This document shows positions 9,635 through 29,309 of a stretch of DNA of 64,000 bases, piece after piece (the stretch's first letter is position 1; each line of letters starts with the position of its first letter). The position numbers were made by a program, and so were the translations under genes. The notes under the pieces are model-generated. The model had not been told where the DNA came from. It saw nothing but the letters and a program-made list of their open reading frames with translations, and searched no databases. Source of the DNA: an uncultured Gammaproteobacteria bacterium (GTDB taxonomy: Bacteria; Patescibacteriota; Microgenomatia; CAZETR01; Amesbacteraceae); contig CAYHGA010000001.1 in NCBI GenBank assembly GCA_964356225.1, positions 29,573 through 93,572 of the forward strand, given 5' to 3'.

Positions 9635-10387
9635 TTAACTCAATACGTAATCCAGTTGACTTGCAATTACTTTATTGAAATCCTGCAAAAATTGGCTTAG
9701 AAAAACTTTGGATTCAACGAGAGGAAAGAGATCATTGTAGACAAATTGGGGATCTACTAAACCGACTTTGGTTTTCACCAAGTCCCGTATTTCCGAAAGA
9801 GTCTTTTTTTCTAAAAGGGACATCAATTGTTTGATATTTGGTTTGAGCGAATAGCCGGTTTTGGCAGAAAGCTGAAGTAACCAATATATGTCGAAAACAT
9901 CCCGTCCTTTAAACGGAATTTTTTGAAACTTACCCTTGAAAAAATTTCTATTTAAAAATGCAACTATCTTATTGGCGTAAAGAGTGGGCAGATCATAAGT
10001 ATTGACAAAAAATTGACGGTTATCAGCTGTAATTAAGCTTTTTTGTACATGATATTCTTTAGTAGTAATTTTTGAAAAATCACATCTCACAAAAATATTG
10101 TCAGGAAATTTTACAAACACGGTCGCATTATTACCGGATATCTTAGTTCCGGCTGATAGATATTTACCAAGATCTTTGGCAAACGTCTGAATATCAAATG
10201 ACGTGCTTGCCGGAATATCAAAATCCAAATCTTCAGACAAACGGTTTAAACCATACACTTTACGCAAACAGGTCCCACCGGTAAAGACTAACCTGTTATA
10301 AATCCCATCGTTATATACAAAATTTAGAATCTCGTCTTGCCAACGTTCCTTTATTAGATTCCTCTGATAAGTATTATCGTCGCTCAT
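9635..10387 (-). CDS. AbiEii/AbiGii-family nucleotidyltransferase (type IV TA toxin-like)
   Basis: LVFTGGTCLRKVYGLNRLSEDLDFD is the GGT..R.S.DLD signature of the DUF1814/AbiEii nucleotidyltransferase fold. It overlaps the upstream AbiEi-like gene by 14 nt. Confidence 0.7.
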   Translation of the reverse strand: MSDDNTYQRNLIKERWQDEILNFVYNDGIYNRLVFTGGTCLRKVYGLNRLSEDLDFDIPASTSFDIQTFAKDLGKYLSAGTKISGNNATVFVKFPDNIFVRCDFSKITTKEYHVQKSLITADNRQFFVNTYDLPTLYANKIVAFLNRNFFKGKFQKIPFKGRDVFDIYWLLQLSAKTGYSLKPNIKQLMSLLEKKTLSEIRDLVKTKVGLVDPQFVYNDLFPLVESKVFLSQFLQDFNKVIASQLDYVLS

Positions 10388-11057
10388 ATAAATATTGCAA
10401 TATTTTACTCATTTTTTTTGACTTGGATTTAGTCACAATCTCTTTAAATTCTTGCATGTCTGCGGCTGTAAAAACAGTCCAATTAAACCTTGAACCGAAT
10501 AAAAACTCCCGTGTTAACTGGTCAGTTATAAGCGGAGTCAGATATATAAAATCAAACATCGCCTTGGCTGGACTGGCAATTTTGTAAGAGAAATCTCCAT
10601 AGAATCTTTGTGTATACCCCCAAAACAAACCGGGTTTGATATTCCGGTATCTAAAACTCATAAGTTTGCTCTGAAACGTCCTGGTCTTCTTGGTGGTCAC
10701 ATTTGTGATGGTATATACACTTTCTGCTAATATTCCGTAAAGTGCCAATGCGTACTCTAAAGATATATAACTATCCCGCACTATTTCGCATCCAATATAT
10801 CTTGCCAATTCTTCTGGCGCGGATGATTTTTGATACAAAGTTTCGTTTAGATAAAATCCGGGTTTAATTGTATCCAACAAGCCTGCCTTTATGAGAGACC
10901 TAATGCGATAATCCAAAGTGCGGCGGTTGTTACCTAAAAGCACCTCTAGATTTTGCCTGGTAAAAAATGGGGCCGTGCTTTCTGAGATCAGTTTCTTGTA
11001 GTCTATTTCCATATGCACATAATTATATGTGCAACCGGAAACGGAGTCAAGTAGCAA
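10374..11057 (-). CDS. AbiEi-like antitoxin / transcriptional regulator
   Basis: N-terminal wHTH-like region (TRQNLEVLLGNNRRTLDYRIRSLIKAGLL) followed by a C-terminal domain. The probable true start is the ATG of MEIDYKK near 11012. Confidence 0.6.
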   Translation of the reverse strand: MLLDSVSGCTYNYVHMEIDYKKLISESTAPFFTRQNLEVLLGNNRRTLDYRIRSLIKAGLLDTIKPGFYLNETLYQKSSAPEELARYIGCEIVRDSYISLEYALALYGILAESVYTITNVTTKKTRTFQSKLMSFRYRNIKPGLFWGYTQRFYGDFSYKIASPAKAMFDFIYLTPLITDQLTREFLFGSRFNWTVFTAADMQEFKEIVTKSKSKKMSKILQYLYERR

Positions 11058-12421: not shown

Positions 12422-12667
12422 ATGAGCTCTACCAGACCATATTTTTTGTGGGATTATGATTTGACCGAGAATGACGTCAGGAGGATTCTGCGTGGGGAAA
12501 ATCAAACAGACAAGATTTGGATTATGTCGAGGATTCTGGAAAGCGCCAAGTTTGAAGATGTTTGGAAATATACAACCTTGTCTGATGTCAGATCGATGAT
12601 GCCGATATTAAAAATCAAAAAACCTATCCGTCAAGCCTGGGAACGGGCCTTAACAATATGGCAGTAA
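12422..12667 (+). CDS. Small protein resembling the C-terminal domain of the AbiEi-like antitoxin (truncated antitoxin?)
   Basis: YFLWDYDLTENDVRRIL...MSRILE aligns by eye with FLFGSRFNWTVFTAADMQEFKEI...MSKILQYL at the C-terminus of the 10374..11057 protein. A TATAAT sits directly upstream, and the ORF overlaps the following NTase gene by 10 nt. Confidence 0.4.
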   Translation: MSSTRPYFLWDYDLTENDVRRILRGENQTDKIWIMSRILESAKFEDVWKYTTLSDVRSMMPILKIKKPIRQAWERALTIWQ

Positions 12668-13320
12668 ATTACGTACTCCAAGACAAATTTTTGAATTTAT
12701 TTTTTTTCGGCCGTTTTGCAGCGGATTTTTATCTGACGGGCGGTACAGCTCTGGTACGATTTTATTTTCAGCACCGCGAAAGTGTAGATTTGGATTTGTT
12801 TAGCCAAAATCAACAGTTGGATTTTTCGGCTGTAAATTTAGAGGTTGAACGTATTGGCCGTGAGTTAAAACTAATAACTATCAAACAAGTGACCACGAAC
12901 ACTTTTTTGCAATTTATATTTGAAAGTACAGAGGGAGATACATTGAAGGTGGATGTAGTTAAGGATATTCCGGTACATTTTGGAGAGTTTAAACAAGAGG
13001 GTAAAGTGAGATTGGACTCATTGGAAAATATAGGTTCAAATAAAATCACAGCTATTTTTGGCCGGACTGATCACAAAGATTTTATTGATTTATATTACAT
13101 TTTAAATAAGACAGATTTTACATTCGAACATTTGGTTTCGCTGGCTAAGCAGAAAGATTTGGGGTTAACCGAATTTTATCTGGCCAATTCGATTGATCAA
13201 ATTGAGCAGACTTCACAAATGCCGGTCTTACTAAAACCACTTGATATAAAGAAATACAACGAATTTTACAAAAAACTTTCCCGGGATTTATTTTTAAAAA
13301 TCAAACCAGAAGATAAATAA
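12658..13320 (+). CDS. AbiEii-family nucleotidyltransferase, second copy
   Basis: FYLTGGTALVRFYFQHRESVDLDLF carries the same GGT..R.S.DLD signature. Confidence 0.7.
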   Translation: MAVNYVLQDKFLNLFFFGRFAADFYLTGGTALVRFYFQHRESVDLDLFSQNQQLDFSAVNLEVERIGRELKLITIKQVTTNTFLQFIFESTEGDTLKVDVVKDIPVHFGEFKQEGKVRLDSLENIGSNKITAIFGRTDHKDFIDLYYILNKTDFTFEHLVSLAKQKDLGLTEFYLANSIDQIEQTSQMPVLLKPLDIKKYNEFYKKLSRDLFLKIKPEDK

Positions 13321-13323
13321 TCT

Positions 13324-14019
13324 ATGGATCAACCTATTCCAACTATTTCTCCGGTCGCCCCATCTCCCAAAACCAACTGGCTATTATTTTTGTTGACAGG
13401 AGTTGTGATTTTATTGGTTGGTATCACTGCCGGGCTTGTGATCGGAAAGTATATTTATGCTCCCAAACCCACCCCAACGGCCGACCCCACCGCCAACTGG
13501 AAAACATATACCAGTAATAAATATGATTATCAATTCAAATATCCCCAAATTCCACCCGAGGCCTCCAGCGCATTTAAATTTTCACTTAACGACAAACTGT
13601 CTGAACTATGGGGACCAGACAATCTAATTTTTAGAATTGAAGTATTTGAAAATATCAACAATCCGCAACTTTGGTGGGAAAATCAAGCTATTGAACCATT
13701 TACTAAACTGGCGGTGAACAACTTTGACTTCACAGAGACAACGCTAAACAGCTATCCAGGATACTCTGCTCAGGTCAAAACAGAATTTCAAGAACCAAAA
13801 AAGGTGTTTAGAACGTATGTGCTTAGCAATAATGATAATGTGTATCTAATTCACTCAGATTATGGTCAGTGGAGTAACCAAATCCTCTCCACGTTTAAGT
13901 TTGTGGAGCAGGCAACGCCGAAGCCGACGTGCAAGCCCAGACCGGCTTGCTTAGATACTTCACCCCGCTGTCTGCTTCCGGAAACATCTGACATGTGTCC
14001 ACCAAATCAGAAGTTATAA
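13324..14019 (+). CDS. Membrane-anchored secreted protein, paralog B
   Basis: The N-terminus (MDQPIPTISPVAPSPKTNWLLFLL...DPTANWKTYT) and the C-terminal NQILSTFKF are near-identical in pattern to the 11100..12374 protein. It starts 4 nt after the NTase stop. Confidence 0.6.
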   Translation: MDQPIPTISPVAPSPKTNWLLFLLTGVVILLVGITAGLVIGKYIYAPKPTPTADPTANWKTYTSNKYDYQFKYPQIPPEASSAFKFSLNDKLSELWGPDNLIFRIEVFENINNPQLWWENQAIEPFTKLAVNNFDFTETTLNSYPGYSAQVKTEFQEPKKVFRTYVLSNNDNVYLIHSDYGQWSNQILSTFKFVEQATPKPTCKPRPACLDTSPRCLLPETSDMCPPNQKL

Positions 14020-14403
14020 CGAATGGGAGTGTGATTTAAGCCAGGATGAGATTTCTTTGACTCCTGGTTTGGAATTGTCGACATAAACCATAAAATCTGC
14101 GGCTTCTTTGCGGTTTGATTTGAGGTGATAACCATTATCCCAGAGAAATTTATGAGTTACGGTCCAAGCTGTGCGTTTGTTGCCGTCGGTAAACGGGTGA
14201 TTTAAGCAAACGGATTGCAGGAGGGCCGCGGCTTTGGCAAAAAGGGTGGGGTAAAGATCTTGACCAGCGTAGGTAGCTTTGGGCCGCTCGAGGGCAGAAT
14301 GGAGGAGAGCAAAATCGCGAACCGCTGCTTTGGTGCCAGCCCTGACAATGATTATTTCATGAATACGATAGGCCTCTTCTATATTAACGATCTGCCAGTT
14401 CAT
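14014..14403 (-). CDS. doc: Doc (death-on-curing) Fic-family toxin
   Basis: HPFTDGNKRTA matches the Doc variant of the Fic motif, HxFx(D/N)GNKR. Confidence 0.8.
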   Translation of the reverse strand: MNWQIVNIEEAYRIHEIIIVRAGTKAAVRDFALLHSALERPKATYAGQDLYPTLFAKAAALLQSVCLNHPFTDGNKRTAWTVTHKFLWDNGYHLKSNRKEAADFMVYVDNSKPGVKEISSWLKSHSHSL

Positions 14404-14665
14404 CGAGAATTTCGGCGTTCTCTTTCATAAAAACGCTAAGCCATTTTTGAAAACCTGCGTCGGATTTTCTAATTTTGGGAGAAGTTTTTTTTATAACAAT
14501 GGTAGTATCGTCTGCTGTCCCCACTAAGACCTTGCTACCAATTTTGAGATTGAGATCGGCCAGGACATCGCTAGGGATAGCGATAACTTGACTATTGCCG
14601 GCTTTGAAAATAGTTTGGAGTTGCATTGTACTAACAATGTTAGTACATAAAATTTTGCTTGTCAA
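14384..14665 (-). CDS. AbrB/MazE/SpoVT-fold antitoxin (Phd functional equivalent)
   Basis: IFKAGNSQVIAIPSDVLADLNLKIGSKV is a swapped-hairpin AbrB-type DNA-binding domain. The ORF overlaps the doc start. Confidence 0.65.
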   Translation of the reverse strand: MTSKILCTNIVSTMQLQTIFKAGNSQVIAIPSDVLADLNLKIGSKVLVGTADDTTIVIKKTSPKIRKSDAGFQKWLSVFMKENAEILDELADR

Positions 14666-20330: not shown

Positions 20331-20750
20331 TCATGTTAATGGGTCAACAATTTTAATATCTCTCATAGGGAAATGCCTGGTATTGCAAGTAATGAGGGCT
20401 ATTTTTTTTATCCTGCAAGTCGCAGCGATCAAATAATCTATCAAATTACTATTAACACTTCGGTATCTATGCCAATATTCTCCCGCTAGTTTGGCTATCG
20501 TAAAATCTATGGGGATCTGATTATGCCACTTGAAAAAATGCCGGTTTGATGGTTCTTCTTCGGGAAAAGAATTTTTGTAAATTTCGCTAACGGTTAAAAC
20601 AGAAATAACTACGGACTGGTCATTCACTATTTTTGAAACGGCTTCAATTATCTTTTTATTTCCTCTGATTATCCAAATTGAAACATCTGAATCAAGCAAA
20701 AATCTACTTTTTGCTTTTGGTTTTGGCATAGGGAATATATGAGTAATCAC
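20331..20750 (-). CDS. vapC: PIN-domain toxin VapC
   Basis: LLDSDVSIWIIRG and the downstream acidic residues fit a PIN fold. The ORF overlaps the vapB stop. Confidence 0.7.
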   Translation of the reverse strand: MITHIFPMPKPKAKSRFLLDSDVSIWIIRGNKKIIEAVSKIVNDQSVVISVLTVSEIYKNSFPEEEPSNRHFFKWHNQIPIDFTIAKLAGEYWHRYRSVNSNLIDYLIAATCRIKKIALITCNTRHFPMRDIKIVDPLT

Positions 20751-21015
20751 GATTAGCCGCAGCCCGACCTTTGTTTACCCAATTTACAATATTTTCTATA
20801 TTTTCCCATCCGGGCCTACTTCTTATACCCAACACGCCGGTAAATTTTCTCAACGCGTCTGCGTAGGAAGTCTTTTTTCTTCCCAATTTCAACTGTTTGC
20901 TAACAGCCATGGCCACAAAACGACTTCTTTGTCTAGTGGATACCCGATCTTTTAAATCCAAATATAAATCCCAAGGTAATGTAAAATTTACTCTGGTCAT
21001 TGTTTGCATATACAC
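20704..21015 (-). CDS. vapB: Ribbon-helix-helix antitoxin VapB
   Basis: TRVNFTLPWDLYLDLKDRV...RSRFVAMAV reads as an RHH/CopG-like N-terminus. Confidence 0.6.
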   Translation of the reverse strand: MYMQTMTRVNFTLPWDLYLDLKDRVSTRQRSRFVAMAVSKQLKLGRKKTSYADALRKFTGVLGIRSRPGWENIENIVNWVNKGRAAANRDYSYIPYAKTKSKK

Positions 21016-22063: not shown

Positions 22064-22201
22064 ATACTTCGGAATGAGATGAGCTTGCCCGGGATCTTCG
22101 GCGAAGCCGTTTAGCTCTTCTATTATCTCTAAGCGTAGGCTCTTTTCCAGTTTACGAAAATTTTTTTCAAATTGGGGAGAATAGTAAAATTTCTTAATCA
22201 T
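22064..22201 (-). pseudogene. Truncated RelE/ParE-like toxin remnant (about 45 aa)
   Basis: Minus-strand ORF MIKKFYYSPQFEKNFRKLEKSLRLEIIEELNGFAEDPGQAHLIPKY* overlaps the Phd stop by 8 nt, as in a TA operon. It terminates before the conserved RelE C-terminal half. Confidence 0.4.
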
Positions 22202-22472
22202 CTAAAAACTCGGAAAAATCGGTGGTAGATTTGAGCTTGCCTGCTTTAAAATCCACTTCAGTCTGTTTAATACCCTGTAACAGCTTCTCGTCTTCCAGCT
22301 CTTGGATCCTGTCGAGAATTTTTTGCAGTTTTCCGACGTTTAGCATAGCCACTTCCGGCTTGTTATTACGCATTACAACCACTGGCTGGTTTCCAGATTT
22401 GGCCAGGTTTAAAATCCTGGCAGAATCCCGTTGCAAATCGGAAGCAGAAACAAGAGTAGGAAGTATGTTCAT
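22194..22472 (-). CDS. Phd/YefM-family antitoxin
   Basis: A 92-aa protein with the typical Phd/YefM N-terminus (SASDLQRDSARILNLAKSGNQPVVV). Confidence 0.7.
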   Translation of the reverse strand: MNILPTLVSASDLQRDSARILNLAKSGNQPVVVMRNNKPEVAMLNVGKLQKILDRIQELEDEKLLQGIKQTEVDFKAGKLKSTTDFSEFLDD

Positions 22473-22517: not shown

Positions 22518-24656
22518 TCAAAAGCGGCGGCGGTCGTCACGACGTTGGGGAGCACGGAAAGGGCCGCGGTCGTCTCTGCGTGGACCGAAGTCCCGACGTG
22601 GAGCACGCTCTTCGCGGGCTTTGACCAGAGGTTGGCCGGCGGCATCAAAAAGCATAGAGAGATTGATACGATTTTGGGAGTCAATTTCAGTGACCCAGAC
22701 TCTAACTTTATCGCCTTCGTGAACGACAGTGTTGGGATCAGAGACAAAACCCTGGGCCATTTGAGAAACGTGGACCAGGCCGTCTTTGCCGGGGAGGATG
22801 TTTACGAACGCGCCAAAAGGCTGGATGCGGGCCACGGTGCCTTCATAGACTTCTCCGGGTTTGGCTTCTTGGCCTAAAGAGCCAATCCAGCCAATGGCGG
22901 AGCTGACTCCATCTTGATCGGTGCCGGAAACGAAAACTGAACCATTGTCGTTGACGTCGATAGTGACATTGAAGTCAGCCATGAGTTTTTTGATGACCTT
23001 GCCGCCCGGGCCAATGAGCTCGCCGATTTTGTCTACGGGAATGGTGACGACATGAATCTTGGGGGCATATGGGGATAATTCTTTTCTAGGTTCGGGAATG
23101 GCTTTGAGCATAGTAGAGAGGATAGCCATGCGGGCAACCCGGGTCCGTTTGAAAGTTTCTTCACAAATTTCCAGAGAAATCCCTGGGATTTTAACGTCCA
23201 GCTGGATAGCGGTAACGCCTTTTTCCGTGCCGGCCACTTTGAAATCCATATCTCCATAATGATCTTCGCCGCCATTGATATCAGTGAGAAGAACGTATTT
23301 ATCTGCCTCTTGTATCAAACCTGTGGAAATTCCGGAGACGGGGGCCAAAAGCGGAACACCGGCATCCATGAGAGATAAAGTGGATCCACAGGTGCTGGCC
23401 ATAGAGGTGGAGCCATTGGAACTCATAATTTCAGAGACAACCCGAATAGCGTAAGGGAAATCAGTTTCAGTGGGAATAACCGGGGCCAGGGCCCTTTCGG
23501 CTAAAGCTCCATGACCTATTTCCCGGCGGCCGGGTGAGCCCATGCGGCCAGTTTCTCCGGTGGAAAACGGAGGAAAATTGTAGTGGTGCATGTAACGCTT
23601 GGTTTCCTCGCCTTCGGCGGATTCTAGAGATTGAGACAAAGAGGGAGCTCCCAGGGTGGTGACGGTTAGGGCTTGAGTTTCTCCACGCTGAAAAATAGCG
23701 GAGCCATGGACCCGGGGCAAGACTCCGACTTCGGCTGAGAGGGGGCGGATTTCATCCAGTTTACGGCCGTCGGCCCGCTTGCCGGCCAGAATATTTTTGC
23801 GGAAAGTTTGGGAGAATAATTCTTCGACAATTTCTTTGACTTCAGCCTGATCTTTGGAGTCAAAACTGGAAACAAGGGGTTCTATTTCAGTTTCATCTTT
23901 TAAGTCTTTGGCAGCTTTTTGGACAGCGGAAAGCAGTTCCGGATTATGATCTTTAGAGGGGACGGGGATTTTGGCGTGCCCAACTTCTTTAACCAGATCG
24001 TTAATGAGGGCGATAATTTTTTTGTTCTCTGCAAACCCGATTTTTAGAGCTTCTAAAACTGTTTCCTCCGGAACTTGGTTGGCGCCGGCTTCGATCATGG
24101 GGATGACAGATTCTGAACTGGCGATAACCAAGTCCAGGTCCGCACCGAAGCGGTTTCCATTTTCTGGATTAATCACTAATTTGCCGTCGATTAGGCCCAT
24201 ACGAACTGCGGCTACGGGGCCGTTCCAGGGAATGGGAGAGATGGCTAAAACGGCGGAGGTGGCAATGAGACCTAAAACGTCAGCGTCGTTGGCAGTATCC
24301 ACAGAGAGAACGGTAATAACTACCTGGGCTTCATTTTTAAGGTTTTTTGGGAAAAGCGGGCGGATGGAGCGGTCGATAAGCCGAGCCGATAGAACTTCGG
24401 CGTCGGTAGGACGACCTTCACGTTTGACCCAACGGGAACCTTTGATGCGGCCCCCGGCATATAAACGTTCCTGGTATTCGACAGACAAAGGAAAATAATC
24501 TTTTTTAAGGTCTTCTTTACCGAGGACCACTGTGGCCAAAAGTGTAGTGTCGCCGTAACGGGCAAAAACGGCCGATGTAGCCCGGGCGGCAAAACGGCCG
24601 ACTTCCAGGGTAAGCGTGCGTCCGGCTAATTCTAAAGTTTTACTGACTAATTTCAT
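22518..24656 (-). CDS. pnp: Polyribonucleotide nucleotidyltransferase (PNPase)
   Basis: Two RNase PH domains plus KH and S1 domains, followed by an Arg-rich tail. Confidence 0.93.
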   Translation of the reverse strand: MKLVSKTLELAGRTLTLEVGRFAARATSAVFARYGDTTLLATVVLGKEDLKKDYFPLSVEYQERLYAGGRIKGSRWVKREGRPTDAEVLSARLIDRSIRPLFPKNLKNEAQVVITVLSVDTANDADVLGLIATSAVLAISPIPWNGPVAAVRMGLIDGKLVINPENGNRFGADLDLVIASSESVIPMIEAGANQVPEETVLEALKIGFAENKKIIALINDLVKEVGHAKIPVPSKDHNPELLSAVQKAAKDLKDETEIEPLVSSFDSKDQAEVKEIVEELFSQTFRKNILAGKRADGRKLDEIRPLSAEVGVLPRVHGSAIFQRGETQALTVTTLGAPSLSQSLESAEGEETKRYMHHYNFPPFSTGETGRMGSPGRREIGHGALAERALAPVIPTETDFPYAIRVVSEIMSSNGSTSMASTCGSTLSLMDAGVPLLAPVSGISTGLIQEADKYVLLTDINGGEDHYGDMDFKVAGTEKGVTAIQLDVKIPGISLEICEETFKRTRVARMAILSTMLKAIPEPRKELSPYAPKIHVVTIPVDKIGELIGPGGKVIKKLMADFNVTIDVNDNGSVFVSGTDQDGVSSAIGWIGSLGQEAKPGEVYEGTVARIQPFGAFVNILPGKDGLVHVSQMAQGFVSDPNTVVHEGDKVRVWVTEIDSQNRINLSMLFDAAGQPLVKAREERAPRRDFGPRRDDRGPFRAPQRRDDRRRF

Positions 24657-24681
24657 GTACTCTTATTCAATCAAGAAGTCT

Positions 24682-24706
24682 GAAGAAGAGGGTCACTTCT
24701 CTTCGC
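24682..24706 (-). promoter_or_regulatory. rpsO–pnp intergenic stem-loop (rpsO terminator / pnp leader)
   Basis: GAAGAAGAGGGTCACTTCTCTTC hairpin lies between the rpsO stop and the pnp start. By analogy to E. coli this could be the RNase III-processed or terminator hairpin. Confidence 0.4.
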
Positions 24707-24720
24707 ACCTCTCGATTGAT

Positions 24721-24990
24721 TTATTTTGTTAAACCTAACTTTTTAACCAGGTCATTATACCTTTTAATATCTTTCCTCTGCAAGTAGAACAATAACCGGC
24801 GGCGTTTGTTGACCATGGATAAGAGGCCGCGGCGGGAATGCTCGTCCTTTTTGTGGGCCTGCAAATGTTCGGTAAGTTTACTGATTTTTTCAGTCAGCAG
24901 GGCGGCCTGGACTTCGGGAGAACCGGTGTCCCCTTTGCCCTGGGCAAATTTCTTGATGACGTCTACTTTTGATTTGGGATCTAGTGCCAT
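24721..24990 (-). CDS. rpsO: 30S ribosomal protein S15
   Basis: 89-aa full-length S15. Confidence 0.93.
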
Positions 24991-25271
24991 ATTTGCGAAT
25001 TTCTAATTGACCTAATTTCCAAAAACTAAATAATAAGAGATAGGGCGAGTGCGAGTCCGATGAACTTCGGACAAACCTCCGTTAATGTCTCTTAGTGCCT
25101 GCAGTATACCATACTGTCTATTCTATTCGGAAGGGGGATTTTGGGATGGAACGTAACACACCCACGGGTTCTGATTATCGTTGGTTGAATACGAATTTGT
25201 TATAGTATTTGTTACTTGACTCACCAACAATAAAACTGTTTAATTAACTCAACCAAATAAAACCCAAATTT

Positions 25272-26135
25272 ATGCTTCAACCAAGAACATCAAACGTTGT
25301 AAATTCGCAGTGCCGTCATAAAAAATACGGAATTGAACAGTTTCTTAATGAGGTGATAGAAGGTGACTGTCTAGATGTGATGGTCGGTATTCCTGATAAA
25401 TCAGTAGACATGATTCTTTGTGATCTCCCATACGGTACAACCCAGAACCAGTGGGATAGTGTTATTCCGTTGGATGAACTATGGGAGCAATACGAAAGAA
25501 TAATAAAAGATAAGGGAGTAATTGTGTTAACATCGCAGGGAATATTTACTGCAAAGCTAATTTTAAGCAACGAAAAGCTCTTCCGATATAAAATCGTTTG
25601 GGAAAAATCGAAACCAACGAACTTCCTAAACGCAAAAAAGCAACCATTGAGAGCCCATGAAGATATATGTATCTTTTACAAGAATCATAAAAACCAACCA
25701 ACATACAATCCGCAGATGAGTAGTGGGACTCCCTATAACAAAGGGACTAGAAAAAATCAACATAGCGGTAGCTACGGGAACTTTGACCCAGTAGTGGTCA
25801 AGAGTGATGGACAAAGGTATCCTCTCGACGTTGTTTACTTCAAAACCGCCGAAAGTGAAGGTCGTATATATCACCCCACTCAAAAACCTGTGGAGTTGGC
25901 TCGCTATCTAATAAGAACATATACAAACGAAGGAGATACTGTCTTAGATAACACTTGCGGAAGTGGGAGTTTTCTTGTTGCTGCCGTGCTTGAAAAAAGG
26001 TCTTTTATAGGTGTAGAAAAAAATGAAGAGACAATATTGCATAAAGAAAAGAAAATAGATCTTATAGAAGTCTGCAACGCGCGAATAAAAGAAGCTCAAA
26101 ATTCTATGGAAAGTATGTTGCCTATATTCCTTTAA
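25272..26135 (+). CDS. Beta-class N6-adenine/N4-cytosine DNA methyltransferase (Type II modification)
   Basis: Motif IV (CDLPYG) precedes motif I (DNTCGSGS), and HPTQKP is present. Confidence 0.8.
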   Translation: MLQPRTSNVVNSQCRHKKYGIEQFLNEVIEGDCLDVMVGIPDKSVDMILCDLPYGTTQNQWDSVIPLDELWEQYERIIKDKGVIVLTSQGIFTAKLILSNEKLFRYKIVWEKSKPTNFLNAKKQPLRAHEDICIFYKNHKNQPTYNPQMSSGTPYNKGTRKNQHSGSYGNFDPVVVKSDGQRYPLDVVYFKTAESEGRIYHPTQKPVELARYLIRTYTNEGDTVLDNTCGSGSFLVAAVLEKRSFIGVEKNEETILHKEKKIDLIEVCNARIKEAQNSMESMLPIFL

Positions 26136-27042
26136 AATCTTCCCTCGGTAAAATTTTTTGAACCTTTTCTAAAACTGTGTCATCTACTTTATTTTTCTCC
26201 TTTAACCACACAAGAACGTGGCGATATTGATTAGGATGTAGAAATGGCTTAATAACTGTCTCTACTTCGAGCTCTTTCCTAACATATTTCAAATGCTCTT
26301 CTTTAAGTAAACCTCTACCGATTAAATCGTAAATTATTCTAACGGCGTCAACAGAAGTTAGATTAAGACCTCCTAATCGTTTTTCGTCCTGACCTACGTC
26401 TTCCTTCGTTAATTCAAATAACTCTTCCACGGCACTGATCCCGTTGAGGTTTTTATTATAAAACTCTATCTCCTGTCCTCTGTACGGAAACCATCCAGAA
26501 ATACCCCGTTCAGTCAAAGATCCACGAGGGAGGTAAACCCCTTCCCTTTTCGCTCTTCCTTTAGAAACCCAACCACATACATAAAGCTTCCATTTTCTCT
26601 GCCTCGACGTGCCAGGCAACGTTCCAGGCTTGGGCCTTTCTAGATGAGTCATCAAGTAAATATCAGTATCTAGTCGGTTGTCAAATACCTGTCTTGCAAA
26701 GAGGTTGTGTTTTGCTTCTCTAGGGATTCCATCGCTACTTGTGTATTTCTCCAAAAAGGGCTTTTCTCCACCTCTGCACTTAACGTCAATCTTTATACCG
26801 TTTGGTGTAAATATGTCATAAGCAAGAGATTGATTTTTATCTTTTTCAACTTTCAACCCTAACTCTTTTCTTATTACCATTTCCGTTAACAACCCATATC
26901 CTTGCTGGTCTTCAGAACCCCGTTCTGCCCCAGACATATTCTTATTTTTCTGAAGGTGTTTATAGGCCTCATTTCTTAATTCAAAACCGCTACTACCAGA
27001 AAGGTCGATTGCGAAAGGTGTAGGCCAACGGTATTTGTACAT
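26122..27042 (-). CDS. Putative Type II restriction endonuclease (PD-(D/E)xK)
   Basis: Convergent with the methyltransferase with a 14-nt overlap. Candidate catalytic core is YDIFTPNGIKIDVKCRGG (D..(I)D-V-K). Confidence 0.5.
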   Translation of the reverse strand: MYKYRWPTPFAIDLSGSSGFELRNEAYKHLQKNKNMSGAERGSEDQQGYGLLTEMVIRKELGLKVEKDKNQSLAYDIFTPNGIKIDVKCRGGEKPFLEKYTSSDGIPREAKHNLFARQVFDNRLDTDIYLMTHLERPKPGTLPGTSRQRKWKLYVCGWVSKGRAKREGVYLPRGSLTERGISGWFPYRGQEIEFYNKNLNGISAVEELFELTKEDVGQDEKRLGGLNLTSVDAVRIIYDLIGRGLLKEEHLKYVRKELEVETVIKPFLHPNQYRHVLVWLKEKNKVDDTVLEKVQKILPREDFKGI

Positions 27043-27064
27043 TTGGTCTTTTTATTCTAACAGA

Positions 27065-27823
27065 TTACGAAACTGTGGTGCCGGAAAAGACTTTGGGAGT
27101 ATACCAGTCGGGTTGAGGTGGTTGGTCGTTAGTCATTGGCTGTTGGTCGCTGGCTGGAGGAGTGTAGACGTCGTGGCGGCGGGCACCGTGGCGCATGAGA
27201 GCGGCAGCAATTTCAAAAGTATCGGCGGTGACGTTGGTTGTAAAATTGGAGGTGGATTTTTCTATGCCGGCTAAAAGATTTGAGGCTGCGTCGTTGGAAA
27301 TGGGGAGTTTGAGGGTTTCAAGAAGACGAGCTGTTTCCTGTGAAGTGCTCAAAGAAAATTGCTTGGATTGGGCAAAAACTTCCGGAATTTCTGCGCCTCC
27401 AACTGGAATTATGAGATCGGCTTGAGCGCCTCCTGAAATGAAATTCAATTTACGGTGGTCAATGCCCGGAGTGTTGGGTTTGGGAGTGACCACCAGATTC
27501 AATTCTCCCCGATCGTCAATATGATAACTGACTTTATCGACAATTTCGGTTTGGCCGGGGAAAGTGATAACCAGATTGCGGCTGCCAAAATTGGAAATAA
27601 CCGTATCCGCCCCAACCAGACGATGAAATTCTACTGTCATGGAGTCGGGGCAGGTGACCAGGGCGGGTTTGCCAAATTGGTCTAAGGAAAGTTTGAGGGA
27701 GAGGGCGGCGGCCACAGCGTCTAATTCCGGATTTTTGGGGAGAAGAATGGCCACCGAATGAGCAGAATCCAGCAGGCTTTTGAATTGATTGGTATCAACT
27801 GGCGCCATGTATAGTGACGGCAA
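27065..27823 (-). CDS. DHH-family (NrnA-like) protein with degenerate catalytic motifs
   Basis: Pattern SVAILLPKNPELDAVAAALSLKL...GK parallels the NrnA N-terminus (IHRH.RPDPDAxGS), but His/Asp are replaced. The DHH position reads IDDR. Confidence 0.4.
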   Translation of the reverse strand: MPSLYMAPVDTNQFKSLLDSAHSVAILLPKNPELDAVAAALSLKLSLDQFGKPALVTCPDSMTVEFHRLVGADTVISNFGSRNLVITFPGQTEIVDKVSYHIDDRGELNLVVTPKPNTPGIDHRKLNFISGGAQADLIIPVGGAEIPEVFAQSKQFSLSTSQETARLLETLKLPISNDAASNLLAGIEKSTSNFTTNVTADTFEIAAALMRHGARRHDVYTPPASDQQPMTNDQPPQPDWYTPKVFSGTTVS

Positions 27824-29309
27824 TTATAGTATCGCCAATCTTGAAGTCAACAGGAGGAAAGAAAACGGCTCCGAATTCCTGACCGGTTTTGATTTTTTCA
27901 ACTTCGGTTTTGCCGACTTTAAGTGATTTAATTTTAGTAATTTTATCAACCACCCGAATCGAATCGGTCTTGAGTATCTCCCCTTCTATACATTTGCTAC
28001 CAGCTACCTGGAGGTTGCCTATTTTAAACTCGGCCAGAATTTGGGCTCGGCCGGTAATAGTTTCAGTTCCGGGAGAATGGATTAATTTTTCAACAGCGTC
28101 TAACAATTCGTAAATAATTTTAAAATTGCGGATGATAATTTTCTCGGTTTCGGCTAATTTGGCGACGCTCCCAGGAATTTTGACGCTGAAACCCACCAGA
28201 TGAGCGTTGATGGACTGAGCCATTGAGACGTCCGACTCGGTGATGTCTCCCGTGCTGGAGAAAACAACTTCGATTTCAGCAGGCAAAGCAGCCAAAACTG
28301 CTTCGAGGGAACCGAGAGTGTCGGCCTTGAGAATGAGTTTGACTTCTCCGGGTACCTCACCCTTTCGTCCCTCTCCTAATTTCTCGCTAGCTCGTGGCTG
28401 TGCCGCAGGAGAGGGAAATAGTATGGAACCGACGGGGATGACGGAGGTGAGGCCCAGTATTTCAACTGGGGTAGAAGGCAAGGCAGGATCGACGGACAGA
28501 GCTTTGGCCTTGCCGACTAATTTATCTAAAAATAATTCCTGACCGGTTTTCAGAGTGCCGTTTTTGACGATAACGACGGCCAGAGGACCGCGACGGGTAT
28601 CAAGGTGAGACTCTAAAACCACGGCCTCGAGAGGAGCGGAGGGATCGGAAGTTGGAGGTTGGAGGCTAGAAACCAAATTAATCATCTCCAAAAGTTCCGG
28701 GAGGCCGGCGCCGGTTTTGGCAGATACGGGTACTACGGGCACGTCTCCTCCGAAACCCTCAACTAAAACTTCATTTTCGGCTAATTGGGATTTGATGGTA
28801 TCTATGGAGGCGCCGGGAAGGTCCATTTTATTAATGGCGACTATCATAGGAATGCTTGCGGCTTTGATAGTGGCAATGGATTCCTTAGTTTGGGGCATGA
28901 CTCCATCTACGGCAGAAACTACCAAGATAGCAATATCAGCAATATCGGCTCCCCGGCTGCGCATCTGAGAAAAAGCAGCATGCCCAGGCGTATCAATAAA
29001 TGTAATATTGTTTACTTGAAAAGCTCTGGTGCTTTGAGTTATGCCACCGACCTCATGGGCGGCAACATCGGATTTACGTAGAGCGTCAAGAAGGGAAGTT
29101 TTGCCATGGTCTACATGGCCCAAAATGACGACGATCGGTGGTCTGTTTTGCATTTCATTCTTTCTTTTCGGAGGTGCCTTTTTCACCAACGATATCGATA
29201 TGATATCCGGTAAGCTTGCCGGCCAGTTTGGCGTTTTGACCTTCACGGCCAATGGCGAGAGATAGTTGGTCGGCAGGAGCCGTGACAACTGCTTCGGCTT
29301 TTTTGGCAT
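27795..29309 (-). CDS. infB: Translation initiation factor IF-2 (short form)
   Basis: G domain ([12 protein letters not shown]) plus the downstream IF-2 domains. The ORF track start overlaps nusA by 155 nt; the real start is probably the Met of [13 protein letters not shown] near 29153. Confidence 0.9.

Follow-up and report, generated by a model that had tools for sequence, protein, structure and literature searches.

A two-gene Type II restriction-modification cassette, very probably intact and horizontally acquired, upstream of rpsO in a Candidatus Amesbacteria genome

The 64-kb stretch of DNA analyzed here (the window) belongs to a groundwater Candidatus Amesbacteria genome (Microgenomates, candidate phyla radiation [CPR]) and carries, within a cluster of translation genes, a DNA methyltransferase gene (M) and a gene for a putative restriction endonuclease (R), together a candidate restriction-modification (R-M) system. 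Read along the minus strand, the genes are dnaJ, nusA, infB, an open reading frame (ORF) of 252 aa, R, M (on the opposite strand), rpsO, pnp, a PhdYefM-type antitoxin and a Lon-like AAA ATPase. An earlier reading of this DNA (the original prediction) had described infB followed by a degenerate DHH protein, a convergent pair of ORFs overlapping by 14 nt, and rpsO-pnp; both the order and the overlap agree with the coordinates given below. Among the contigs listed, the arrangement is identical on four from different samples; recurring across contigs of several independent samples, it is therefore fixed in that population. The features of the locus, including those defined by comparison with relatives whose site is empty (L010 to L012) and with module copies at another locus (L027 and L029), are as follows.

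25272..26135, plus strand: M gene, 287-aa beta-class S-adenosylmethionine (SAM)-dependent DNA methyltransferase, from PF01555, PADLOC and relatives in the PDB
26122..27042, minus strand: R gene, 306-aa putative restriction endonuclease, with a PD-(D/E)XK core at about residues 10-200 and a helical C-terminal domain at about 200-306
26122..26135, no strand: 14-nt overlap of the convergent R and M 3' ends, from the ORF coordinates
27043..27064, minus strand: 22-nt spacer between the R start codon and the stop codon of the DHH-like gene, carrying the left end of the module
25194..25271, plus strand: region upstream of M kept among copies, forming the right end of the module; 25194 is the last position homologous with L027 and L029
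25112..25193, no strand: 82-bp segment matching neither module copies nor empty sites, 45% GC
24991..25111, minus strand: native rpsO promoter (TGGTATACT) and conserved structured 5' leader, aligning with the empty-site relatives L010 to L012
27065..27823, minus strand: left flank, 252-aa degenerate DHH-domain protein, from a profile search against DHH structures
24721..24990, minus strand: right flank, rpsO (ribosomal protein S15), PF00312 at 2.3e-35
22518-24656, minus strand: pnp, downstream of rpsO

The composition of the pair differs from that of its surroundings. GC content is 38.2% in M, 39.4% in R and 38.5% over the inserted stretch, against 50.4% and 49.2% in the flanks and 47.0% in the window as a whole. 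Just 1.2% of segments of equal length in the 64 kb are as low in GC as the insert, and these lie over an AbiEii/AbiEi toxin-antitoxin islet. The pair and the spacer upstream of M had been described as visibly AT-richer than the flanks, with the spacer put at 280 bp; these measurements support that description, with a spacer of 281 bp (24991-25271) that is composite (24% GC at 25194-25271, 45% at 25112-25193 and 40% at 24991-25111).

M matches the Pfam family PF01555 (N6_N4_Mtase) over residues 45-255 at 3.7e-30 and the PADLOC MTase_II model PDLC03251 at 4.1e-72, and its solved relatives in the PDB include CcrM (2.1e-15), M.RsrI (3.3e-13) and M.MboIIA (8.9e-12). Motif IV (DLPY, residues 51-54) lies ahead of the SAM-binding motif I (CGSGS, near residue 230), and the order is therefore that of the beta class, which, with the PF01555 match, confirms the class assigned in the original prediction. 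Motif IV reads DLPY, not the usual DPPY, in the window M and in each of the nine family methylases inspected. M probably methylates adenine at N6, judging from the Asp at the first position of motif IV and from the relatives CcrM, RsrI, MboIIA and YhdJ-type enzymes; CcrM, M.RsrI and M.MboIIA are all N6-adenine enzymes. Outside the CPR, the closest relatives of M (∼60% identity) are encoded on Lactobacillales and Rhizorhabdus plasmids (L008, CP042402.1, 2438-6062; L009, CP021186.1). These were considered as a clue to specificity and set aside, as the genes next to them encode proteins of ∼910 aa (one annotated as an N-6 DNA methylase, the other as hypothetical), which may be Type IIG/IIS-like, and not an R-type nuclease; one methylase lineage is therefore paired with unrelated nucleases.

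R matched no Pfam, NCBIfam, PADLOC or PHROGs model, whether searched as a single sequence or as a profile, and domain searches found no helicase or ATPase domain in it. The family is new to these four libraries and has no characterized member. At E ≤ 1e-3, 512 database proteins match R; the best 120 of these are all about 305 aa long and 56-87% identical to it, and the named sources among these 120 are metagenome-assembled genomes (MAGs) of Patescibacteria or Gracilibacteria, with every protein annotated “hypothetical”. When 1.84 billion cluster representatives were searched exhaustively with a profile, only 64 R-family matches emerged (18 of them below 1e-30), and the family is therefore narrow. 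No match to R was found by tblastn in plasmid and phage collections, and the family occurs on just three IMG/VR contigs. The remotest members, stand-alone proteins of about 175-245 aa, match residues ∼25-210 only; Pfam scans of ten of these small remote homologues (175-245 aa) found nothing relevant that bridges to a known family.

An AlphaFold2 model of R built from 30 homologues (predicted local distance difference test [pLDDT] 85.9; predicted template modeling score [pTM] 0.84) was compared with known folds using Foldseek. The top ranks in the PDB were NhoI, DpnI and EcoRV, and among the BFVD viral models there were 26 matches at E ≤ 1e-3, the best of them phage proteins of 160-206 aa, some named “restriction endonuclease”. 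The model and its fold matches display the layout of a PD-(D/E)XK core (alpha-beta-beta-beta-alpha-beta, with D followed by (D/E)xK): a helix at 44-60 carrying E54 precedes D76, which lies just before strand 77-78, and D86 and K88 are in strand 84-92. D76, D86 and K88 are invariant in 15 aligned sequences down to 23% identity, as are N113, Q118, G157, G174 and E193. The window R retains every residue that is invariant in the alignments, and both ORFs of the pair are full length. The tetrapeptide IDVK, from which a PD-(D/E)xK enzyme had been suspected, is present as I85-D86-V87-K88 and does form the (D/E)xK part of a true PD-(D/E)XK site. On the strength of a confident model, the 306-aa protein is thus predicted to be a PD-(D/E)XK nuclease. 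A conserved helical domain of about 100 aa makes up residues ∼200-306; modeled by itself, it reached a pLDDT of just 62.5. The sole result for R among PDB sequences was a marginal acyl-carrier-protein (ACP)-like match within this C-terminal domain (E about 0.01; R residues about 203-264; 26122-26457, minus strand), in which an invariant LNLTSVDA stands where ACP has its DSLD serine region. It was treated as chance or generic helical-bundle similarity, and the resemblance to ACP is probably coincidental.

In all, 90 loci encoding an R homologue were collected from metagenomes, genomes and IMG/VR. An orthologous methylase (67-87% identity to M) lies directly downstream of R, in convergent orientation, at 88 of the 90, and the two remaining contigs end <150 bp from R. 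Most family loci have an R/M overlap of 4 nt; it is 14 nt in the closest copies, L027 to L032, which form a subfamily with the window pair. Pairwise identities of R and of M are correlated (Pearson 0.86; 2016 pairs from 64 distinct loci), and the two genes therefore travel together. Their neighborhoods, compared by translated similarity, are diverse (38 distinct ones upstream among 59 loci, and 41 downstream among 54 loci), with no third gene conserved between copies of the module. This combination of linkage and varied context is the signature of a mobile two-gene R-M unit. With only two genes conserved between copies, the Type I and Type III hallmarks (an ATP-dependent motor and a specificity subunit) are absent. 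In every feature that can be checked in silico, the pair would be a Type II R-M system by function and by architecture. The original prediction of an R-M pair, not an orphan methylase, therefore gains from the tail-to-tail methylase found at all 88 loci with room for one. That prediction had also named two outcomes that would speak against it, namely a match of the 306-aa protein to a non-nuclease family and related genomes keeping the same gene order without the methylase; neither was found.

Empty versions of the site were found by scanning species-representative genomes with the 252-aa neighbor protein. Three relatives, a MAG labeled Gammaproteobacteria (L010) and Candidatus Amesbacteria GW2011_GWA1_47_20 (L011) and GW2011_GWC2_45_19 (L012), have the order nusA-infB-DHH-like-rpsO-pnp and no R-M genes at the locus, the distance from the DHH-like stop codon to the rpsO start being 134, 93 and 187 bp, respectively. 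Amino acid identity between these relatives and the window is 83-97% for the DHH-like protein, nusA, rpsO and the Lon-like ATPase, and 72-95% for infB and pnp. For L010 the values are 92% (nusA), 95% (Lon-like ATPase) and 97% (rpsO), and its Gammaproteobacteria label is therefore probably wrong. This MAG (CAYHNU010000013.1) carries the whole Amesbacteria-type cluster, and five further MAGs labeled “uncultured Gammaproteobacteria” or “Pseudomonadales” (L018 to L020, L024 and L025) also encode a Patescibacteria-type DHH-like protein; the taxonomic labels of such records look wrong.

Homology with the empty sites breaks off at ∼27060-27065, where the DHH-like gene has its stop codon, and picks up again at ∼25099-25111, immediately before the rpsO -10 element and the conserved leader hairpin. 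The cassette entered an intergenic spacer immediately upstream of an intact rpsO promoter and leader, and it disrupted no gene. Its closest copies (L027 to L032; R 83-87% and M 86-87% identity) sit elsewhere, between a staphylococcal-nuclease-like (SNase) gene and tRNA-Gln(CTG), and over 27062-25194 nucleotide identity is 84.6% with L027 and 79.4% with L029. The length conserved between copies is ∼1.87 kb and the inserted stretch is ∼1.95 kb, roughly 25112-27062; the 82-bp stretch at 25112-25193 may be ancestral spacer or DNA transferred with the module. Module GC is 36-38% across hosts, and host flanks range from 40 to 50%. In the copies beside tRNA-Gln(CTG) (L027:7889-7960; L029:7889-7962; L031:5889-5960) the module ends about 40 bp from the tRNA gene, a classic landing site for mobile DNA, and no integrase was found within the stretch available beside these three.

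With empty sites in close relatives, the module present elsewhere at 85% nucleotide identity and a deviant GC content, the horizontal acquisition that had been proposed from composition is upheld. We consider it very probable that the pair is an intact, horizontally acquired two-gene Type II R-M cassette and that, as part of this explanation, the insertion is recent: the cassette would have entered the short gap separating the DHH-like gene from the rpsO promoter in a Candidatus Amesbacteria lineage that had already diverged from its sequenced relatives. Of this reading, the data show the intact genes, their folds and motifs, the linkage of R and M, the mobility of the unit, the empty sites and the limits of the insert.

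The original prediction had gone further in proposing that the pair displaced rbfA and truB. Both genes are indeed absent from the window: no TruB GTLDP-type motif occurs in its six frames, real RbfA and TruB queries gave no tblastn match in it at E ≤ 0.33, and Pfam searches of its unassigned ORFs find neither gene. Displacement, on the other hand, does not stand. The relatives without the R-M pair, L010 to L012, equally lack rbfA and truB at the locus and have only a 93- to 187-bp spacer there, and no RbfA- or TruB-like sequence was found in 10-17 kb around the DHH-like gene at 14 Patescibacteria loci. According to a survey of 30,000 genomes, rbfA has been lost in Dojkabacteria, WWE3 and Microgenomatia (PMC12641178). 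By taxonomy lookup, Amesbacteria belong to the Microgenomates group (class Microgenomatia). Lineage-wide loss or relocation in Microgenomates, and not displacement by the cassette, accounts for the missing rbfA and truB.

The neighboring 252-aa ORF earned its “degenerate DHH” label. Its profile matches DHH structures (4ls9 at 8.8e-11, NrnA and Rv2837c) over the DHH domain only, with DHHA1 and the canonical DxD and DHH motifs gone; Pfam gave no matches for its distant homologues, and the link to DHH came from the search of the profile against the PDB. A Clostridia MAG (L026) retains the classical order infB-rbfA-DHH/DHHA1-truB, and its DHH/DHHA1 protein matches the window ORF directly at 3.7e-7. 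By sequence and position, the 252-aa gene is the degenerate positional counterpart of the NrnA-like gene of infB-rbfA-nrnA-truB clusters. The infB gene next to it (27795-29309, minus strand) is short, with a longest ORF of 504 aa (public records give it 452 aa), and at its 3' end it overlaps with the beginning of the DHH-like gene, a compact layout that is kept in relatives.

As a working cassette, the pair would operate in the conventional manner, with enzymatic activity, the methylated base, a specificity common to R and M, promoters and regulation being the parts that we infer. With SAM as the methyl donor, M would modify an exocyclic amino group in a specific sequence of host DNA, and R, as a Mg2+-dependent PD-(D/E)XK endonuclease with the active site D76, D86 and K88, would cut M's target sequence when it is unmethylated, for example in incoming phage DNA. 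Each gene may have its own promoter-like element at the outer edge of the cassette, with the genes converging. Upstream of R, a TGn-extended -10-like element TGTTAGAAT (27062-27054) begins where module homology with L027 and L029 starts (27062) and ends 11 nt before the ATG, and the R mRNA would therefore be nearly leaderless if this promoter is read correctly. Upstream of M there is a TGn-extended -10-like element TGTTATAGT (25198-25206) together with TTGACT-17 nt-TTTAAT (25216-25244). These candidate promoter elements were read from the module ends that the copies share. The DHH-like gene is co-oriented with R and its stop codon lies 22 nt before the R start, and read-through from the nusA-infB-DHH-like genes is therefore possible and may add to R expression. 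No terminator lies between R and M, and transcription converges over the 14-nt overlap. The window copy lacks both a controller protein and a regulatory domain, and it is therefore presumably promoter strength and convergent transcription that set the balance of R and M.

The native rpsO leader beyond the cassette contains a 5' stem-loop (25033-25095, minus strand) of 19 predicted pairs, supported by three compensatory changes among four Amesbacteria sequences. An Rfam search of 24600-27300 gave no match, and the leader had none at E ≤ 1; it probably serves S15 autoregulation and is of an uncatalogued type.

Most methylases of the family carry an N-terminal head that the window M lacks. Among the methylases of 64 distinct relatives, 13 heads are complete LexA-like ones, 45 are ∼80-100 aa without a Pfam match and two are HTH_17; the remaining four methylases have none, and this headless class includes the window subfamily. 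The LexA-like head (LexA_DNA_bind at 8e-17 and Peptidase_S24 at 1.7e-30) has an AAG cleavage-site-like motif, a GNSM serine and an LKK lysine, and occurs for example in L003 (1382-2830, minus strand), L049, L035, L038 and L111, in which M is about 482-496 aa long. We found no description in the literature of a LexA_DNA_bind and Peptidase_S24 head on such a methylase; judged by its domains, the fusion suggests that these R-M systems may be controlled by self-cleavage or DNA damage. The ∼80-100-aa extension (MASNQIFKAVYF...LWYLRKNLG), seen for example in the 365-aa M of L066, is presumably another regulatory or DNA-binding head; L001 has HTH_17 instead. A broader idea, which we regard as speculative and rather unlikely, is that of a CPR-wide family of selfish R-M modules with an interchangeable control element, in which LexA heads would couple the R/M balance to DNA damage through RecA-stimulated self-cleavage, and the headless copy would rely on convergent overlapping transcription and read-through from nusA-infB. 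Were this so, read-through would tie the restriction activity of the window copy to the expression of host translation genes, via the growth-regulated nusA-infB operon.

New families of restriction enzymes are no rarity, and insertions of RM units are familiar; the event described here is of an ordinary kind, its sole new aspect being a nuclease family found in none of the family libraries searched. Like Type IIP-style systems (RsrI, PvuII and MboII), the cassette has a separate PF01555 M gene and a separate PD-(D/E)XK R gene in a compact, tightly linked, mobile two-gene unit, for which the tail-to-tail orientation is one of the standard ones. It differs from them in that the window R has no detectable sequence similarity to solved or modeled restriction enzymes and has a conserved ∼100-aa helical C-terminal domain, and in the DLPY of motif IV in place of DPPY. 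M.SsoII, M.EcoRII and M.MspI are methylases autoregulated through an N-terminal helix-turn-helix; the heads of most window-family methylases (HTH_17, LexA-like, or a domain without a Pfam match) recall these, whereas the window methylase is headless. Bare RM gene units inserted without other mobility genes are known (Furuta, Abe and Kobayashi 2010, PMC2853133), and the present case resembles them in the insertion of a bare pair, the empty site in relatives, the deviant composition and the related copies beside a tRNA gene. Unlike those units, it shows no long target duplication or flanking inverted repeats, and its site is a spacer of a conserved housekeeping cluster in a CPR bacterium.

Several observations weigh against an acquired, working cassette. 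No target-site duplication, inverted repeat or mobility gene was found around the insert to explain its movement: the search for duplications and inverted repeats gave short matches at chance level, and no integrase or transposase is present at the insert. Loss in the ancestor of L010 to L012, instead of gain in the window lineage, is formally possible. A consensus promoter and terminator scan of the region returned no more sites than shuffled sequence. Word-avoidance analysis (the window, 549 kb of flanks from module-carrying genomes and 248 kb of controls) revealed no clearly avoided palindrome in the window or the 549 kb of host flanks; no word stood out, the lowest observed/expected ratios being 0.62-0.74, and no target can therefore be proposed. 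R-M activity, methylation and cleavage are themselves deduced from sequence.

A rival history has the pair ancestral at the site and lost by precise deletion in the three relatives. A single deletion would suffice if L010 to L012 form one clade, and the 82-bp stretch at the junction that matches neither the copies nor the empty sites would fit such a past. The insert is, however, about 11 GC points below its flanks, module GC is constant across hosts, and the module's closest copies occupy another locus. If the pair were instead a remnant in decay, its nuclease inactive and only its methylase surviving, two full-length ORFs and an R that keeps all alignment-invariant residues would be hard to explain, and we judge this pair of histories very unlikely. 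That M might be an orphan or regulatory methylase lying beside an unrelated nuclease, such as a repair or Holliday-junction-resolvase-like enzyme, has in our view only a slim chance of being correct: M adjoins R in 88 of 88 loci, fixed tail-to-tail across about 40 unrelated contexts, the two have co-diverged (r = 0.86), and the pair is absent from close relatives, which would be unexpected of a housekeeping repair nuclease. Least probable to us is a modification-dependent nuclease (Type IIM or IV, NhoI/DpnI-like) whose linked methylase marks another sequence or protects in some other way, which would place the pair outside the classical cognate R-M systems. The top structural neighbors of R, NhoI (PDB 8q5n, 8rpx) and the catalytic domain of DpnI (4esj, 4kyw), do recognize methylated DNA, and this too counts against a cognate pair. 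The likeness is limited to the generic PD-(D/E)XK core at just 12-15% identity, though, and these methylation-dependent enzymes have no cognate methylase and are about half the size of R or bind DNA through different domains; enzymes of the modification-dependent kind normally stand alone, with no co-evolving methylase as an obligate partner. A horizontally acquired Type II R-M cassette is thus the explanation that we favor.

Elsewhere in the window, further AT-rich accessory islets lie between housekeeping genes (9635-11057, 12658-13320, 14014-14665, 20331-21015 and 22194-22472). They contain AbiEii/AbiEi pairs, a second AbiEii, a small gene pair (14014-14665) and a PIN toxin with a small ORF upstream, and the PhdYefM antitoxin sits between pnp and the Lon-like ATPase. 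The genome of this organism is rich in small selfish or defense modules.

The locus offers a well-delimited case of a bare R-M pair entering a CPR genome, in which the empty site, the boundaries, donor-like copies and the surrounding translation-gene cluster can all be seen, and it corrects the idea that the absence of rbfA and truB was caused by the cassette. R could offer a new specificity, and R-M regulation through the LexA-headed methylases of sister loci would be of a new form. The restriction-endonuclease family to which R belongs numbers >500 sequences, here mainly from Patescibacteria, and lies outside Pfam, NCBIfam, PADLOC and PHROGs; automated surveys of CPR defense would therefore score such loci as orphan methylases and undercount R-M systems in these bacteria.

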